Shown here piece after piece: positions 1-13,644 of a stretch of 64,000 nt of DNA. Within the stretch, counting starts at the first letter, position 1, and the number at the start of each line of letters is the position of its first letter. The stretch lies in NCBI GenBank assembly GCA_958296285.1, contig OY282459.1, positions 1,604,999 through 1,668,998 on the forward strand, read 5' to 3'. The notes below the pieces were generated by a model. That model saw only the letters and a list, made by a program, of their open reading frames with translations, was not told the origin of the DNA and made no database searches. Position numbers and translations under genes: made by a program. Source of the stretch: an uncultured Alphaproteobacteria bacterium (lineage in GTDB: Bacteria > Pseudomonadota > Alphaproteobacteria > JAPOUT01 > G958296285).

Positions 1-3000
1 CCTGCGCCTGTGGAGAAACTGCCTGTGAAGTTGGCGTCCGCGGCGTTTTCAAAGAGGTCGTTGCCTGTTCCGCTGAGGAAATTGCCGATGATTGTTCCCG
101 CGTTGCTTGCCCTGTTGCCGAGCCAGTTTGAGAGGCTGATGGCGCGATTGGTCGCGGCGGCGGTGTTGGAGGAATCCATGATGATGGCGCGTGTCGCGGA
201 TGATCTCGCGCGGATGGTCGCGCCTGCGGCGACATCCAGCGTCAGCTGCCCGGAGCCGGAGAAAAGCCTGACGACAGCGATGCGGCTTCCCTGGTTTCCT
301 GACGCACTATGGGTTCCGCCGTCAATGTCTATATGCGCCGTTCCCGTTCCTGAGGCGCTTGCGTCTATAGCGATGCTTTCGGTGCCTGTCGTGGAGGCGT
401 TCGCGGTCACGTCCATCGTGATATTGCCGCCTGTGCTACTTGCGGAGATGGCGTGGCTTGAGGCGGAGCCTGTGGAGACTGCGCCTGCGATATTCATGGA
501 GATATCTCCGCCGCCGCTGGCGCGGATGGCGTGCTCGCTGCCGCTTGTTCCCGTTGTGGAGATAGCCGCATCGCTGTCGGTGGTGATGCGGATGGGCATG
601 GCGTTGTTTCCTGTGGCGAGGCTGAGGGCTATTCCGCTTGTCGCGTTGATTCTGCCTTGCATGACGTGGATTTCGCTTCCCGCGCCCGTGAGTCTGATGG
701 ATGGCGTTGTGGCAGGGGTATCGTAGATGATGGCGAGGCGGCTGATATTTGTGGCGATTCCGCCGCTATATCCTGCGGCGTTGTCGCAGACGACCTGTCG
801 GTTGGCGACCCCTGGAGATACGGGAACGCGGTTTTCGGTGAGTTTTCCGCAGATCATAGTTCGGTCTAATTGGAGGACGTTATCGGCGATAAAGAGGAAG
901 CCTTGGGCGCTGGAGAGGCTTCCGAGAGATGTCGCGTCTGGGAGGCTTGTCGCGGCGATAAGCGGGATTGTTCCGCTATTGGGGATGTTTCCTGCGGAGG
1001 CTGTGAGTTCCACGGTTCCCGCGGTGAAAATGGCGGAGGAGAGATCGTTGATAGAGAGGAGGGCTGATGTTGGGGCTGTTGTGGCGTTGTAGCGGAATCG
1101 TATTGTTCCGCTTGTCTGCGTGAAATTTTCAAGAAGGGTGAAGGAAACTTGCCCGCTCGCGGCGGCATGGTCTATGACGAGCGTTCCCGTATTGATGAAA
1201 CTGTCGTTTCCCGCGCCGAAATTGCTTCTTCTTTGGTTGATTGTCATAGTTCCTGCGTTTTGGACTTCGTCGTTTCTTCCGCCCATAGTGAATTGTCCTG
1301 TGAAGTTTGCGCCGGCGGCGTTTTCAAAGAGGTCTCTGCCTGCGCCGCCGATGAAGTTTCCGATGATTGTTCCCGCGTTGCTTGCTCTGTTTCCGGCCCA
1401 AATTCCTGATCCGATGGTTCTAGGGGTCATAGTTGCCCTGTTGCTGGAGGAGAAGAGGATGGCGCGGCTCGCGCTTCCTGTGGCTTGGACTGTGGCGCCT
1501 GACGCGACATCCACGGTGAGTTGTCCTGCTCCTGTTGAGATGAGGGAGATGACGGCGAAGATTCCTGCCTGGGTTCCTGAGGCGCTATGGGTTCCGCCAT
1601 CAATATCCAGATGGATTCCGCCTGTATTTGTGTTCGTGGCGAAGAAGGCGGAGCTGAGTTCTCCAATGGCGGAGCTATTTCCGGCGAGGGATGCGGTGAT
1701 ATTGTTGCCTGCGTTATTCACTCCGGAGATTCGCGCGAAGATGGCGTGTCGGGCGGCGCCTGTGTCTGTGTTCATGACGCTGGTTCCCGCGGCGGTTGTG
1801 ATGCGAAGCGGGCTGACATTTTCTGTTGGGTCTATGCTGATGGCGGCGCCTCCGATGTCTTCTGGCGTTTTGATGATGGGGCTTGCGCCGGCTTGGACAT
1901 GGATTTCGCCTCCGCCATTGAGTTGTCGTATGAAGGGCGTTCCTGTGGCGGTGGCGCTATAGAGAATGGCGAGATTATCCACCGCGGCCGTTATGCCGCT
2001 GGCGTAGGCTTCTGCGAGGGATGCGTCGCAGACGACCTGTCTTGTGGCGACTCCTGGGGCTTGGGGGACTCGTGTGGTGAGGAGTTTGCCGCAAACTCTA
2101 GCGCCGACTATTCTGGTCAGGGTGAGTTGCAGGATGGAAGTCGCGCCGCTTGAGACGATGCTAAGGGTTCCGAAATCAGGATTGACGAGTCCGCCTAATG
2201 TGGCGAGGCTGGGATTTTCTATGAGTTGGATGACGGATCCGATGGGGAGTTCTCCGCGGAGCGGCTGAAGTTCTATGGTTCCGGCGATAAAATTGGGCAT
2301 TCCGCTGAGTCTCATAAGAGGCTCGTTGGGGGGCATATTCACGCCGCTGCCTGTGGGGTTGAAGAGGAAGCGGAGGATTCCGCTTTGGGATGGCGTGGTT
2401 TGTCCGAGGATGAAATCGGAGAGGTTGGAGAGGACGATCTGTCCGCTCTGTGCATAATTAATGACGAATGTTCCTGTGCTTGTGAGTCTGTTTCTTTGGG
2501 CGGGCATGGAAGGGTCTGTGAGCGTTCCGAAATTGGAGGTTCCGGCGAGGGTCATAGTTCCTGTGTTGGTGATGGTTCGTCCTTGCGGGCCGTTGGCGAA
2601 GGAGAAGTTTCCCGTAAATTCTCCATCATTGGCGAAGGTGATTGCTGGTCCGCTGAGGGTGAGAGTTCCTTGGATCATGCCGCCTCTTCTATTGGCGATG
2701 GTTTCCAGCCCTGTGATGCGGGCTCCTGATTGTGTGGTGATGAGTCCCGTATTGATGATGCTGTCGGCGCCGGTTCCGAAGTCGGATGTGCCGAAGAAGC
2801 TTATGACTCCTATATTGGTGATTTGGTCGTCTCCGCCTGCGAGAGAGACGTTTATTTCCATCATGCCGCCGCTATTATTGACGATATGGTCTTTGAAGTT
2901 GGCATTGGCGCCGCTTGCGATGACGCTGGCGATTTCTCCTCCGATTATTCCCGCGTTTGTGAGGATATGGGCGAAAGTTTCGGTTCCTGTGAAGGCGGCG

Positions 3001-6000
3001 AGGTTGCCGCGCTGAAAGAGGACGGCTCGGATTCCGGTTCCCGTTCTGTTGCGGGCGCAGTTATGGATGCCGGCCTGTGTGGAGACAGCGCCGGCGCAGA
3101 CGATATTGCCTGGGCGAACATCAAGGTTGAAATGCGGCGCGGCGAGATCGGATCGGAGGCGGATTGCGGCGGCATTGTCGCCGAAGACGGAGACTCGCGC
3201 GCCTGTTCCGGCGATATCTACGTTGATATCTCCATGTCTGCCGCGCGCGTTGGCGTCTATGGCGTGGGAGGAAGCGCCCGCCGTTCTGACGACTGCCGCG
3301 CCGCCTATGTCTATGTTGATTGTCCCGGCGGCGTCTGCGGAGATTCCGTGGACATTCATTCCGAAACTGTCTATGAAGGCGTTCCCAGCGAGTTCCACCG
3401 TGACGCTTTCCAGTAAGGATTGCGCGCGGATGGCGTAATCATTCACGCCTATTTTGAAGACGCTGCCCTCTATTTTGACGGAGACGTCTCCCCAGCTTTC
3501 GGCGAGGATAGCGGGATTATTGGCTCTGGCTCTATTGTCTCTATTGGCGATGAGGGTTCCTGAGGCGGTTGTGATGGCGATGGGTTTTTGTCTGGCGGCG
3601 GAGGAGTTTGTCCTGATGCTGAGAGCGGCGCCCGGGTTGAGGTCTGCGGATTTGACGATTTGGCTCGCATTTTGGCGGATATGGATTTCGCCGCCGAGTC
3701 CTGTATGGCGGATGAAGGGGGTTTCGGTGATTTTGGAGATTCCGAGCGAGGCGGCGAGGGCTTCTGTCGGGGCTTGGGTTCGGGCGTTGAGGGCGGTCAG
3801 TTCGTCCGCGGTGGCGTCGTCATCCACTTGGAAGATGTTTCCGTCCACATGGAATCTTTCGCCTCGCGCGTAGTTTGTTGCGTTGCTCCATGGGTTTGCG
3901 GCGGGGGCTGTCGGGGTATAGAGCATAGCGAGGTCGTTTTGGCTCTCTGATATTCCGGCGAGAAGGATGTCGTCGCAGAGGACTTGGAATCGGGTTATTC
4001 CGGGGGGAATGGGCGTTGTTCCGATGGAAGTCGCGATATTTCCGCCGCAATATGCGTTGGGGTTTATGAAGGTGATTTGGAGGGCGTTTCCGCTGATGGC
4101 GAGGGTGGCGGGCGTTCCTAATGCGAGAGCGAGCGTTCCGAGGTTTGTGGATGAGGAGATTGCGGTTCCTGTGATAAGATCCAGCGTTCCGGAGGTTGGG
4201 AAGGCTCCTGCCGTGGCGATGATTTCTATTGTTCCGGCGGTGAAGGTTGGCGCTGCCGTGCCTAGATTGAGGAGGGCTTGGGTGAAGGATGCGAGGGTTC
4301 TTGTTCCGCCGAAATCCATTCGGAATCGGAGCATTCCGCTTGTTTGGACGAAGTTTTCAAGATTGGCGAGTGAGATTTGGGCGTCTCCCGCCGCGTCATG
4401 GTCTATGACAAGAAGGCTTCTATTTTCCAGCCTGTCCGTTCCGGCTCCGAAATTGGATGACGCGTTGAGGGTGAGCGTTCCTGCATTTTGGATTTCGTTT
4501 TCGCCTGCGCCCATCGTGAAACTGCCGGTGAAACTGCCGCCCGCCCTATTCTCAAAGAGGAGATCGCCGCTGAAGATGTTGTGCAAAGCGCCGAGGATTC
4601 TGCCGCTATTGCTGATTCTGCTGCCTGTCCAATCGCCCGATCCGATGCTGCGCGGGGTTGTCGTGGCGGTGTTGAAGGATTCTATGTAAATCGCGTGGGT
4701 CGCCGATCCTCTTGCTTCCACGCTGGCATTGGCGGCGACATCCATTGTGATCTGTCCTCTTTGGGTCTTGAGCAAGACGACAGCGAAGTCCGCCCTTGCC
4801 TGCGCGCCTGACGAACTGTGCGCGCCGCCGAGGATATTCAGATGAACCTCGCCTCCTTCTTGGGTTTGGGCGAATATGGCGTTGCTGTTCGCGCCTGTGG
4901 TGGAGGCGTTTCCGGTGATGTCTATTGTGATGTCGCTGGCTTCTCCCCCCACGGACTCCGCGAAGATGGCTTGGCTGTTGGAGCCTGCGGTGGAGGCGTT
5001 GCCTTTGATGTCCAGCGATATGCGTCCGCCGTTCTGAGCGTGAATGGCATGGCTGCTATTGCGGGTGTCTTGATTGGAGACGGTCGTTCCTGCGGCGGTT
5101 GTGATGGCGATAGGTTCTGAGAAAGCTGTGAAGAGGTTGACCGCCGCGCCTGCGCTTTCGGCGCTGGTTTTGAGAATGGGACTTGCGCCGGCGCGGATAT
5201 GGATTTCGCCGCCTACGCCCGTATGACGAATGAAGGGCGTTCTGACGGAGGTGATTCCGAGCGAGGCGGCAAGAGCTTCTGTCGGGGCTTGGGTTCGGGC
5301 GTTGAGGGCGATGAGTTCGTCCACGGTGGCGTCGTCATCCACTTGGAAGGTGAGGCTTCCTATTCGGAAACTGTCGCCTTTGGCGTATATTACGTCGCTT
5401 CGCCATGGATTTGCGTATGCGGCATAGAGGATTGCGAGTCTGAAGGCGCTTTCGGAGATTCCTGCTGGAACGATCTCGTCGCAGAGGACTTGGAATCGGG
5501 CGATTCCTGGGGCGATGGGGGCGTTTCCTGTGGTGGCGAAGTTTCTGCCGCAGAAAGGCGTTGGCGGGGCGAAGGTGATTTGGAGGACATTGCTGGAGAG
5601 GGCGAGACTTCCATAGAGTCCTGGCGTGAGGAAGAGGAGCGCGGGGGAAACGTTGAGGTTCGCGGCGCTGACGAGGTTGAGGGTTCCGGAGGTTGGGATT
5701 TCTCCTTCGGCGGCGATGACGTCCAGCAAGATTCCTGTGGAAATGGTTGAGGTTCCGCTTCCTAGATTGAGGAGGGGCTGCGTGAAGGATGCGAGGCTTC
5801 TGCCGGGCGCGAGATTGATTCGGAATCGGAGCGTTCCTGTCGTGAAGGTGAAACTTTCCAAACCTGCGAAGTTGATTTGGGCGTTTGCGTTGGCGGCGTG
5901 GTCTATGGTGAGGGTTCCCGTATGTTGATTGATGAAACTGTCGGTTCCGCTTCCGAAATCGGCATTTCCATTGATTGTGAAGAATCCTTCATTTCGGATT

Positions 6001-10408: not shown

Positions 10409-11217
10409 CAGACGGCGACCGGCGCTTTGATATGGGGATGGGCTTCGTAATTTTGGATTGCGATATCGTCATATTGGAATTCCAAGAGGTCTTTGACCTT
10501 CTGATTGAGGACGAGTTTGGGGAGCGGCAGCGGCTCGCGCTGAAGTTGCTGTCGGGCTTGATGGAGATGGTTCAGATAGAGATGAACATCGCCGAAAGTA
10601 TGGATAAATTCTCCGGCCTTGAGTCCGGCGACATGGGCGATCATTTCTGTTAGGAGCGCGTAGGATGCGATATTGAACGGCACGCCGAGAAAGATGTCGG
10701 CCGATCGCTGATAGAGTTGGCATGAGAGACATCCGTCCGCGAGATAGAATTGGAAGAGGCAGTGGCATGGGGGGAGTTTCATTTTGTGGATTTCGGCGAC
10801 ATTCCATGCGCTGACGATGAGTCGCCGCGAATGAGGGCTATTATTAATGTCATGGAGCAGATTTTGGATTTGGTCTATTGTTCTGCCGTCATGGTTTCGC
10901 CAAGATCGCCATTGTTGCCCATAGACCGGCCCGAGTTCGCCATTTTCGTCTGCCCATTCGTCCCAGATTCGGACGCCTTCTTTTTGGAGTTTTTTGACAT
11001 TGGTTTCGCCTCGGAGGAACCAGAGAAGTTCATGGATGATGGATTTGGCGTGGAGTTTTTTTGTTGTGAGGAGCGGGAAACCCTCTTTCAGGTCAAAGCG
11101 CATTTGATATCCGAAGAGGCTTCTCACGCCTGTCCCTGTTCTATCGGGGCGATTTTTGCCGTTTTCCAGCGCCTCTTGGAGCAGTTTGAGATATTGCCGC
11201 ATGGCATGTTTCCTCAT
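10408..11217 (-). CDS. thyA: Thymidylate synthase
   Basis: 269 aa; [16 protein letters not shown] ... catalytic Cys region CHCLFQFY ... [16 protein letters not shown]. Confidence 0.92.
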
Positions 11218-11304
11218 CCTCGCCGAATCGGGATTTTATCGCATTTTTTGTGATTTCAAAAAACATATTCTCGCTAGAGGAATTGGTCTATAATCGTCAT
11301 TGCC

Positions 11305-11680
11305 GGTCATTCGGCTATAGCGATAAACGCGCAAGCGATTACGTTTTGCGGACGCGGGGGCAGTACCCGCCGCCTCCACCATATCGCATCTTCTAGGAGT
11401 TTGCGATTTGACGGGGGCGAAACAGGATCGACGGGGACGGAAAGTTTGTGTCTTTCGCTCGGCATTGCACCGCCGTTATCGGGCTACGGCATAACTGCCA
11501 ACGACAACTATGCGGATGCTCGTCTCGCTGCGTAAGCGTTGAGGCTGCATCGCCTAGACATAATTGTCTGCAAGTCCTGAGTCATTCGCAAAGGTTCAGG
11601 CGGGGTTTGGCGGGCGCCCGGCAACAGAAGCCCGCCATTTTCGCGCCTTTTGGGGGTCGCGGGGGCGTTTCGCGGATTGG
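11305..11680 (+). ncRNA. ssrA: Permuted (two-piece) tmRNA: acceptor piece ending CGCCTCCACCA (~11371-11381), short intervening loop, then coding piece starting GGGGGCGAAACAGGATCGACGGGG (~11413) with tag ORF ANDNYADARLAA* (11497-11535)
   Basis: Tag reading frame GCC AAC GAC AAC TAT GCG GAT GCT CGT CTC GCT GCG TAA gives the alphaproteobacterial ANDNYAxARLAA tag. 5-prime GGGGGCG pairs with 3-prime CGCCUCC, giving the G3:U70 alanine identity pair, followed by ACCA. The UCGACGGGG 5-prime motif is conserved in tmRNAs. The 3-prime half lies upstream of the 5-prime half as in alphaproteobacterial permuted ssrA. A possible -10 TATAAT sits at ~11293. Exact ends are uncertain. Confidence 0.6.
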
Positions 11681-11689
11681 AAGAGGGCT

Positions 11690-12226
11690 ATGCGGTCATT
11701 AGGAAAGAGCGGGATAGACTATGCGGTTTTGATGCGGGGCGCGATTCTGGGATTGATTCGCGATCTTTTGTCTCGCGTGTCTGCGGATGGTTTGCCTGGT
11801 CGTCATCATTTTTACATATCCTTCGCGCCTGATTTTGACGGCGTTGAGATGTCGGCGTCTCTTCGCGCGCGCTCTTCTTCTGACGAGATGACGATTGTTT
11901 TGCAGCATCGTTTCGCGTCTTTGGAGGTTTCGGAGGATTGTTTTTCTGTGAGTTTGTGGTTTGGGGGCGTTTCGGAGCGTTTGACGGTTCCTTTTGAGTC
12001 GCTGACGGCATTCGCGGATCCGTCTGCCGGTTTCGCTTTGAGTTTGGGAGATTTTTCGCGCGCTTCGCGCGATGCGGGGAAAGATGAGGACGTCTCTTCC
12101 GAATCTTCGGGGTCTGAAAGCGAAAAGAGCGAAAAGAGCGAAAAGGGCGAAGGGGACGCGGCGGGCGCGGCGGATGGCGGGGGCGAAGTGATTTCGTTGG
12201 AGAGTTTTCGCAAGGAGAATTCTTGA
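11690..12226 (+). CDS. sspB: ClpXP adaptor SspB (alpha-type stringent starvation protein B)
   Basis: [18 protein letters not shown] ... [12 protein letters not shown] ... [15 protein letters not shown] ... matches alphaproteobacterial SspB. Start chosen at the internal ATG (RBS GAAGAGGG) because the upstream part of the 11564 ORF overlaps ssrA. C-terminal tail carries an (SEK)3 repeat. Confidence 0.75.
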
Positions 12227-13644
12227 TGTCTAAACAGAAGGGGGGGGCTTGGCGTTTGGAGCGTGATTCCTTGGGCGAGACGCGCGTTCCTTCGGATCGC
12301 TATTGGGGGGCGCAGACTCAGCGTTCATTGGAGAATTTTCGGATTGGGGGGGATCGGATGCCGTTGTCGGTTGTTCATGCTTTGGGCGTTGTGAAGATGG
12401 CTTCGGCGCGGGTTCATATGCGTCATGGGAAATTGTCGGCGGAGATTGGGGGGGCGATAGAGCGGGCGGCGGCGGAGGTGAGGGATGGTCTTTTGGACGA
12501 TCACTTTCCGCTTGTGGTTTGGCAGACCGGTTCGGGGACTCAGACCAATATGAACGTGAATGAGGTTATCGCGAATCGGGCGATAGAGTTTTTAGGTGGG
12601 ATATTGGGATCGCAAGCTCCTGTTCATCCGAATGATCATGTGAATTTGGGTCAGTCCTCCAACGACAGTTTTCCGACAGCGATGCATATTGCGGCTTCTG
12701 TTGAGATTTCGGAGCGTTTGATGCCGTCTCTTTCGGCGTTGGAGGATATTTTGGTTGAGAAGGCGCGGTCTTTTCGGGGGATAGTGAAGATTGGTCGCAC
12801 GCATATGCAGGATGCGACTCCCTTGACTTTGGAGCAGGAGTTTTCGGGCTATGCGGCTCAGATTGGCGGGGCGCGGCGGCGGATAGATTTGGCGTCTCGG
12901 AGTCTGCTGCCGTTGGCGCAGGGGGGGACGGCGGTTGGGACGGGTCTGAATTCCTATTCGGGTTTCGCGGAGGATTTCGCGGCGGAGGTGAGTCGGATCA
13001 CTGGTCTTCCCTTCACGAGCGCGCCGAACAAATTTGAGGCTTTGGGCTCGCATGACGCGATTGTGGAGGTTTCGGGGGCTTTGAATGTTTTGGCGGCGTC
13101 TCTTTTCAAGATTGCGAATGACATTCGTCTTTTGGGTTCAGGTCCTCGCTCTGGCTTGGGGGAGTTGTCGTTGCCTGCGAATGAGCCTGGGTCGTCCATC
13201 ATGCCGGGGAAGGTGAATCCGACTCAATGCGAGGCTTTGACGATGGTGGCGGTTCAGATGATGGGGAATCATTTCGCGGTGACTGTGGCGGGGAGTCAGG
13301 GACATTTGGAGTTGAACGTCTTCAAGCCTGTTTTGATTGACAATTTGCTGCGCTCGGTTGTTTTGGCGGGGGATGGCTGTCAGAGTTTCGCGGAGCGGTG
13401 CGTATCGGGATTGGAGGCGAACAGAGATCGGATTGGTTCGCTGGTGGAAGCTTCTCTGATGCTGGTGACGGCGTTGGCGCCGCATATTGGCTATGACAAG
13501 GCGGCGAAGATTGCGAAGACGGCGCATGAGCGCGGGACGAGTTTGCGTGAGGAGGCTGCGCGTTTGGGTTTTGTGTCTGCCGAGGATTTTGATCGCTTCG
13601 TGCGCCCTGAGAGGATGACGTCTCCGAGCGATGAGAAGGGTTGA
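12223..13644 (+). CDS. fumC: Fumarate hydratase class II
   Basis: 473 aa; [18 protein letters not shown] and [16 protein letters not shown] (SS-loop signature) are aspartase/fumarase family motifs. ATGA overlap with sspB. Confidence 0.95.

Follow-up and report, generated by a model that had tools for sequence, protein, structure and literature searches.

In Escherichia coli, the gene for transfer-messenger RNA (tmRNA), ssrA, encodes a one-piece molecule and is linked to smpB, and sspB lies in the sspA–sspB operon. The two-piece tmRNA of Caulobacter crescentus was reportedly characterized experimentally by Keiler, Shapiro and Williams in 2000, and alpha-type SspB is said to have been defined by Lessner et al. 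in 2007 on the C. crescentus protein (PDB 2qas and 2qaz). The ssrA gene of Sinorhizobium meliloti (SMc04478) likewise encodes a two-piece tmRNA that was characterized experimentally (Ulve et al. 2007). Its pieces of 82 nucleotides (nt) and 204 nt were detected by Northern blot (PMC2245857). Experiments on two-piece processing, alanylation, and trans-translation have been published only for Caulobacter and S. meliloti. The locus described here, an ssrA gene followed by sspB, lies in an uncultured Alphaproteobacteria bacterium (assembly GCA_958296285.1, contig OY282459.1, positions 1,604,999 to 1,668,998). The window is the whole stretch of 64,000 nt that was analyzed, and all coordinates refer to it.

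The interval 11262–11639 on the forward strand is the sole circularly permuted ssrA of the window and is followed by an alpha-type sspB at 11690–12226, the two representing the standard two-piece rescue pathway. The probability of this reading is estimated at about 0.96. Both genes are identified and complete. The locus is an ordinary, textbook alphaproteobacterial ssrA with an alpha-type sspB, in an arrangement that is near-universal in the class.

ARAGORN reported a single tmRNA in the whole 64 kb, flagged as permuted ("tmRNA*") at 11285–11626, with the tag ANDNYADARLAA. The Rfam covariance model RF01849 (alpha_tmRNA) matched 11262–11639 with 219 bits against a gathering score of 50 (E = 4.5e-62), and the alignment spans model positions 1–355 of 355 with just two non-standard pairs flagged. 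RF04321 (tmRNA_permuted) also matched, with 131 bits (E = 1.8e-25). Both matches were reproduced on the sub-region 11150–12300, where a permissive Rfam search returned no other RNA family. The permuted order is directly visible, as the ACCA at 11378–11381 in the acceptor piece lies upstream of the GGGGGCG at 11413 in the coding piece. The initial annotation had proposed a permuted alphaproteobacterial ssrA from the letters alone; the permuted ARAGORN call and both covariance models, under which the region folds as a tmRNA, bear this out, and every sequence element that it listed was found in place by direct inspection. The agreement goes well beyond chance. The base composition of the tmRNA (G/C 0.291/0.262, vs 0.346/0.194 in sspB) has a strand skew far below that of the flanks, as expected of a structure under constraint.

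The acceptor piece, which is the 3′ half of the tRNA-like domain, occupies 11302–11381 according to RF01849, RF04321, and ARAGORN. Its 5′ end is approximate, set by comparison with the homologous S. meliloti start GCCG...GGCTATGGCAATAAACG. This piece comprises a 5′ hairpin, P2 strands, the T-arm, and the 3′ acceptor strand CGCCTCC (11371–11377), which is followed by the encoded ACCA. Upstream, CTATAAT at 11288–11294 is a putative −10 box of the ssrA promoter, recognized by homology only: it aligns with the conserved CUAUAUU at RF01849 model positions 27–33. In the portion covered of the S. meliloti transcription-start supplement (PMC3616915), a CTATAT −10 box precedes the mapped tmRNA start site by 7 nt.

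An intervening segment of 31 nt (11382–11412) separates the two pieces and, in both covariance-model alignments, lies in the loop of the acceptor stem, which is unpaired and poorly conserved. In relatives, the corresponding segment measures 5–102 nt, with a median of 37 nt. By analogy with the published Caulobacter and S. meliloti two-piece tmRNAs, the segment is expected to be removed during processing. The coding piece then extends over 11413–11637 (ARAGORN and Rfam; 3′ end putative) and carries the 5′ acceptor strand, P2 strands, the pseudoknot PK1, the tag frame, a downstream conserved region, and a terminal hairpin. The 5′ acceptor strand GGGGGCG (11413–11419) pairs with CGCCUCC of the acceptor piece in a seven-pair acceptor stem. 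The third pair of this stem is G:U, the G3:U70 alanine identity pair, just as the initial annotation had read it. Across 58 relatives, the acceptor stem is the same or almost the same. The terminal hairpin (11608–11637) was folded separately and has a 14-nt loop, and its GGCAACAGA motif is conserved in relatives.

The T-arm GCGGG/GGCAGTA/CCCGC (11354–11370) has the 5-base-pair stem and 7-nt loop of the alpha_tmRNA family type. Its loop, GGCAGUA at 11359–11365, had been flagged as non-canonical. The departure from the tRNA-like UUCRAnU is real, but it is the family norm and no anomaly. Among the T-loops of 58 relatives, which are tmRNAs adjoining sspB in GTDB alphaproteobacterial genomes, 25 are GGCAGTA and 25 are GGCGGTA; 6 are GGCAGTG or GGCAGTT, and the remaining 2, from Caulobacterales-type sequences, are TGCGATT. 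The T-loop consensus of Rfam alpha_tmRNA is GGCgGUA, and a G-for-U replacement in the T-loops of the Caulobacter and Reclinomonas mitochondrial tmRNAs was already described in 2005 (PMC1168896). The idea of an aberrant T-loop was rejected on these three grounds. The T-stem itself is GCGGG/CCCGC here vs CCGGG/CCCGG in 58 of 58 relatives, so that the first pair is G-C instead of C-G. This is a compensatory flip, which favors function over decay.

PK1 lies at 11460–11486 on the forward strand. Stem 1 is formed by CGGC (11460–11463) with GCCG (11472–11475), and stem 2 by UUGC (11465–11468) with GCUA (11483–11486), which includes one U.U mismatch. Pair counts were made on an alignment of the 5′ part of the coding piece (A2, 43 sequences), and the same columns with their 3′ partners slid served as the control. 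Standard pairs occupied 93.9% of the cells at PK1 vs 23–65% with slid partners, and the stem-2 pair at columns 57/74 changes from G-C to A-U in 7 sequences. PK1 is supported by covariation.

The tag reading frame GCC...GCG TAA was called by ARAGORN at 11497–11535 on the forward strand, with resume codon GCC, peptide (A)ANDNYADARLAA, and a TAA stop codon at 11533–11535. The same tag and frame had been read in the initial annotation, and PK1, which ends 10 nt upstream of the resume codon GCC (11497), supplies the pseudoknot and resume context expected in front of such a frame. The tags of all ARAGORN-called relatives start with ANDN and end with AA. A single residue, D for E, distinguishes this tag from the S. 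meliloti tag ANDNYAEARLAA, which has been seen by mass spectrometry (PMC10117765).

The sspB gene (11690–12226, forward strand) starts with ATG at 11690 and encodes an alpha-type SspB adaptor of 178 amino acids, as recognized by Pfam, PDB matches, and alignment. The protein matches Pfam PF04386 with 116 bits against a cut-off of 27, over profile positions 3–154 of 156. Its PDB matches are 2nys (Agrobacterium AGR_C_3712p; 5.2e-25) and 2qas/2qaz (Caulobacter SspB; ~1e-20). The gene next to ssrA is therefore SspB, as had been proposed. The start at 11690 agrees with the N-termini of homologues in an alignment with 19 homologues (A1). The predicted layout of the protein is an N-terminal substrate-binding domain, an acidic Ser/Glu-rich linker, and a putative C-terminal ClpX-binding motif, VISLESFRK. 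In A1, this motif aligns with the family VVSLDxFRKK, in which L170, F173, R174, and K175 are invariant or nearly so. According to the SspB literature, a peptide of this kind binds ClpX, and it is predicted to do so here.

The closest protein in a collection of 5.8 billion sequences has 61% identity over 63% of the length. In the public ENA annotation of the genome, only the last 92 residues of SspB are called as a protein, and the tmRNA interval carries no gene call (locus copy L081, 2723–3001). Because the public call truncates SspB, the collection holds no full-length identical protein. The locus matters mainly as annotation, given that the tmRNA is missed and SspB is truncated in public gene calls.

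The tmRNA shares with other RF01849-type tmRNAs the order of acceptor piece, spacer, and coding piece, the encoded CCA, G3:U70, the GG-type T-loop, the P2 helix between the pieces, PK1, and a tag with an ANDN start and an LAA end. It differs in the first T-stem pair, which is G-C here, and in the spacer, whose sequence is unrelated, as is usual; the architecture is alike. With the S. meliloti tmRNA it additionally shares the U.U variant of PK1 and a −10-like box at the model position of the mapped promoter. SspB shares with the alpha-type proteins of Caulobacter and Agrobacterium the PF04386 domain, a disordered acidic linker, and the C-terminal (V/I)(V/I)SL(D/E)xFRK. The E. coli or gammaproteobacterial system follows the same pathway and logic: its tag is bound by the adaptor at the N-terminal part and by ClpX at the C-terminal LAA, and its adaptor is tethered to ClpX by a C-terminal peptide. 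In contrast, its tmRNA is one piece instead of the two pieces found here, and ssrA is linked to smpB in E. coli and to sspB in Alphaproteobacteria.

The mechanism proposed for this locus applies the established knowledge of the alpha_tmRNA family by analogy, and we infer RNA processing, aminoacylation, and binding of the tag by SspB on this basis. A single precursor would be transcribed from a promoter near 11288, with CTATAAT as its probable −10 box. The precursor would be cut into an acceptor piece of ~80 nt with the encoded CCA and a coding piece of ~225 nt, and the 31-nt spacer would be discarded. The two RNAs are predicted to pair via the acceptor stem (G3:U70) and helix P2 to form the tRNA-like domain, which would be alanylated through G3:U70. 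The charged RNA and SmpB would then enter stalled ribosomes, translation would resume at GCC (11497), and (A)ANDNYADARLAA would be added to the stalled protein. The N-terminal domain of SspB would bind the conserved N-terminal part of the tag, and VISLESFRK would tether the tagged protein to ClpX, which would recognize the C-terminal LAA, so that ClpXP would degrade the protein. The invariant ANDN start and AA end of the tags of relatives fit this two-site (SspB/ClpX) logic.

The adjacency of ssrA and sspB was surveyed across Alphaproteobacteria with the SspB alignment as query against GTDB genomes, each species being represented by one; the 80 best loci were retained with 4-kb flanks. Of the 77 assessable loci, 73 have a tmRNA upstream of sspB and in the same orientation. 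Among these tmRNAs, 65 were called by ARAGORN as permuted tmRNA and 8 by Rfam, where ARAGORN had missed the gene or it was cut by a contig end. Three of the 80 loci had too little upstream DNA to be scored, and in two of these three the terminal hairpin motif stands at the contig edge. In 68 loci the tmRNA is within 500 nt of sspB; measured up to where the protein match begins, the median gap is ~93 nt. The loci cover Rhodospirillales, Hyphomicrobiales, Rickettsiales, Caulobacterales, Sphingomonadales, Rhodobacterales, Acetobacteraceae, and Micavibrio-like metagenome-assembled genomes (MAGs). The initial annotation had called for a look at relatives and had described the coupling of the RNA gene to its adaptor gene as striking. 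The adjacency is conserved and the coupling itself stands, but its peculiarity does not, because with 73 of 77 loci it is the class-wide default. The order of ssrA then sspB is among the most stable gene pairs in Alphaproteobacteria, where it replaces the ssrA–smpB linkage of enterobacteria.

The frequent block in these genomes consists of folA and thyA leftward and ssrA, sspB, and fumC rightward. The whole block recurs often, and the window is thus a typical alphaproteobacterial locus. ARAGORN and Rfam found no tmRNA within 4 kb in four loci (L003, L014, L039, and L067). In L014, from a lichen-associated Rhizobiales MAG (2995–4001), thyA lies ~200 nt directly upstream of sspB with no tmRNA between them, and ssrA has apparently moved or been lost from the site. 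In five further loci (L004, L005, L008, L010, and L051), the tmRNA is upstream of sspB and on the same strand at a distance of 1.1–3.0 kb, with DNA inserted between the genes. The hosts of these loci are a Sphingomonadales MAG, Acuticoccus, Asticcacaulis taihuensis, a Parvibaculaceae MAG, and a Dinoroseobacter MAG. tmRNA genes are integration sites for mobile elements.

Both genes that flank the tmRNA gene were recorded as conserved in Rhizobiales in a small-RNA survey of S. meliloti in 2007 (PMC2245857). The tabulated flanks are SMc01449/SMc01450, AGR_C_3711/AGR_C_3712, and mll1468/mll1469 (PMC2245857 supplement). AGR_C_3712, the right-hand neighbor of the tmRNA gene in Agrobacterium tumefaciens, has the same position as sspB here, and its protein was solved as PDB 2nys, which is the top structural match to SspB in the window. 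The 2007 survey did not recognize this tmRNA neighbor as sspB (PMC2245857). A full-text literature search, which did not cover Lessner et al. 2007, found no paper that states the ssrA–sspB adjacency; its hits were unrelated works on optogenetic iLID tools and on genomic islands.

The adjacency may be an inherited gene order without functional consequence, in which ssrA and sspB would each rely on a separate promoter and terminator and the pair would persist only by inertia. This explanation has a substantial chance of being correct, although the odds are against it. A conserved hairpin ends the tmRNA and is followed here by AUUUU, the five lineages with a separation of 1.1–3 kb have lost neither gene, and four loci lack a tmRNA within 4 kb. 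The authors of the 2007 survey, who had recorded the conserved flanks, also called a functional association uncertain, as smpB is 1.1 Mb away in S. meliloti (PMC2245857). On the other hand, the pair is kept in the 73 loci through many orders, with strand and gene order never varying, whereas other neighbors are kept in only 33–39% (thyA in 31 of 80 loci and fumC, downstream of sspB, in 26 of 80). Conservation of the ssrA–sspB link thus far exceeds that of the gene order around it, a point in favor of selection. The gap of 53 nt between the end of the hairpin and the sspB ATG, which is below 40 nt in many relatives, is too short for a free-standing promoter and leader, and a T-run of at least 5 follows the hairpin in just 7 of 69 relatives. 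Moreover, tmRNA and SspB act on the same substrates. On the comparison of gene orders, the ssrA–sspB coupling is real and apparently selected.

We also infer, with less than even confidence, that sspB may be read through from the ssrA promoter. Generic promoter and terminator scans of 10900–12500 and 11150–11720 gave neither a sigma-70-type promoter nor a canonical terminator in the interval from ssrA to sspB. The loop limit of the terminator scan was 3–8 nt, which excludes the terminal hairpin 11608–11637 with its 14-nt loop. Together with the rare T-run and the 53-nt gap, these scans make read-through plausible. The opposite point is that the terminal hairpin, which is G+C and is followed by AUUUUCG, could terminate a large share of the transcripts. 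The 60-nt spacer did not fold better than shuffled sequence (z = −0.64), and a structured leader is not claimed. Searches of the literature found no statement of an explicit ssrA–sspB transcription unit, the portion covered of the S. meliloti transcription-start supplement (PMC3616915) contains no entry for SMc01450, and the Caulobacter and Methylosinus transcriptome papers do not mention sspB.

The hypothesis that emerges from the survey is that the RNA encoding the tag and the adaptor reading it are co-transcribed and coupled in dosage. Across the class, sspB, here together with fumC, would have no promoter of its own and would depend on read-through transcription driven by the ssrA promoter, which is very strong. 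In that case the tmRNA precursor would also form the 5′ part of the sspB mRNA, and 3′-end processing of the coding piece would set the ratio of adaptor to tmRNA. This proposal is tentative, and it is rather more probable that it fails than that it holds.

A decaying or non-functional tmRNA copy, such as might be found in a reduced symbiont genome, with the odd T-loop and the PK1 mismatch as its signs, is very improbable. The genome is small (the locus lies on a 1.72-Mb contig), its strand compositional bias is extreme, and PK1 has its one U.U mismatch. Nevertheless, no other tmRNA was found in the window, and this one aligns with the model from end to end. Its T-loop is that of the family consensus, and the altered T-stem pair is a compensatory change. 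No defect is seen in the acceptor stem, G3:U70, CCA, the resume codon, or the ...LAA end of the tag, and the local composition resists the genome-wide skew. The U.U mismatch also occurs in four other relatives and in S. meliloti, where the tmRNA is expressed and the tag is in use.

Nothing speaks against the identity of either gene, and that mismatch is one of three minor points. The second is that the generic sigma-70 scan (10900–12500 and 11150–11720) found no −35/−10 pair upstream of ssrA. The third is that SspB did not reach the cut-off of NCBIfam NF008764, the gamma/beta-type SspB equivalog (17.5 bits vs 191). A miss of the gamma-type equivalog is expected because the protein belongs to the divergent alpha type, and it was accordingly filed as alpha-type SspB and not as an E. 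coli-type equivalog.

It is least probable, to the point of being negligible, that 11448–12226 is protein-coding and its tmRNA likeness incidental: the open reading frames (ORFs) 11448–11702 (84 amino acids) and 11564–12226 (220 amino acids, TTG start), which the initial annotation had noted as drawn over the tmRNA, are both present in the mechanical ORF list, but they conflict with the E = 4.5e-62 match to RF01849, with SspB homologues that start at the equivalent of 11690 and never carry a 42-residue N-terminal extension, with a Pfam match that starts at residue 15 of the 178-amino-acid form, and with a public gene call that puts no gene over the tmRNA. ORF 11448–11702 and the 5′ extension of 11564–12226 were therefore rejected as mechanical artefacts, on the covariance models and the homologue starts. 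The correct reading of the locus, ssrA followed by sspB, removes these two spurious ORFs.

Downstream of sspB, fumC (12226–13644, forward strand) encodes a class II fumarase, with the Pfam domains Lyase_1 and FumaraseC_C and 100% identity to the ENA protein P0121 from the 1,723,605-bp contig s55.ptg000057c of assembly ERZ19489113. The TGA of sspB overlaps the ATG of fumC (TGATG, 12224–12228), which suggests translational coupling of a proteolysis adaptor with an enzyme of the tricarboxylic acid cycle.

Over the whole window (1–64000), the forward strand contains 31.2% G, 23.6% C, 26.9% T, and 18.3% A, and this asymmetry is independent of gene orientation. In every 4-kb bin, the GC skew is +0.02 to +0.30 and the AT skew is −0.05 to −0.29. 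The strand bias is strongest in 1–20 kb and fades towards 56–64 kb. Such a skew is unusual for an alphaproteobacterium with 55% G+C and suggests a strong replication-strand mutational bias in the 1.72-Mb genome.

On the reverse strand, one open frame of 3,249 codons runs from 9749 to the start of the window without a stop codon. The product of this giant gene has 12,470 residues according to the public gene call, and the gene ends just upstream of folA. A Pfam search with the first 1,200 residues gave no hit. The product has a signal-peptide-like N-terminus, is rich in Ala, Gly, Thr, Ile, Ser, and Asn, and contains a recurring "LAIIYD...HTG.GGEIH" motif. Judged by these features, the body of the giant gene product resembles an adhesin or an autotransporter passenger domain.

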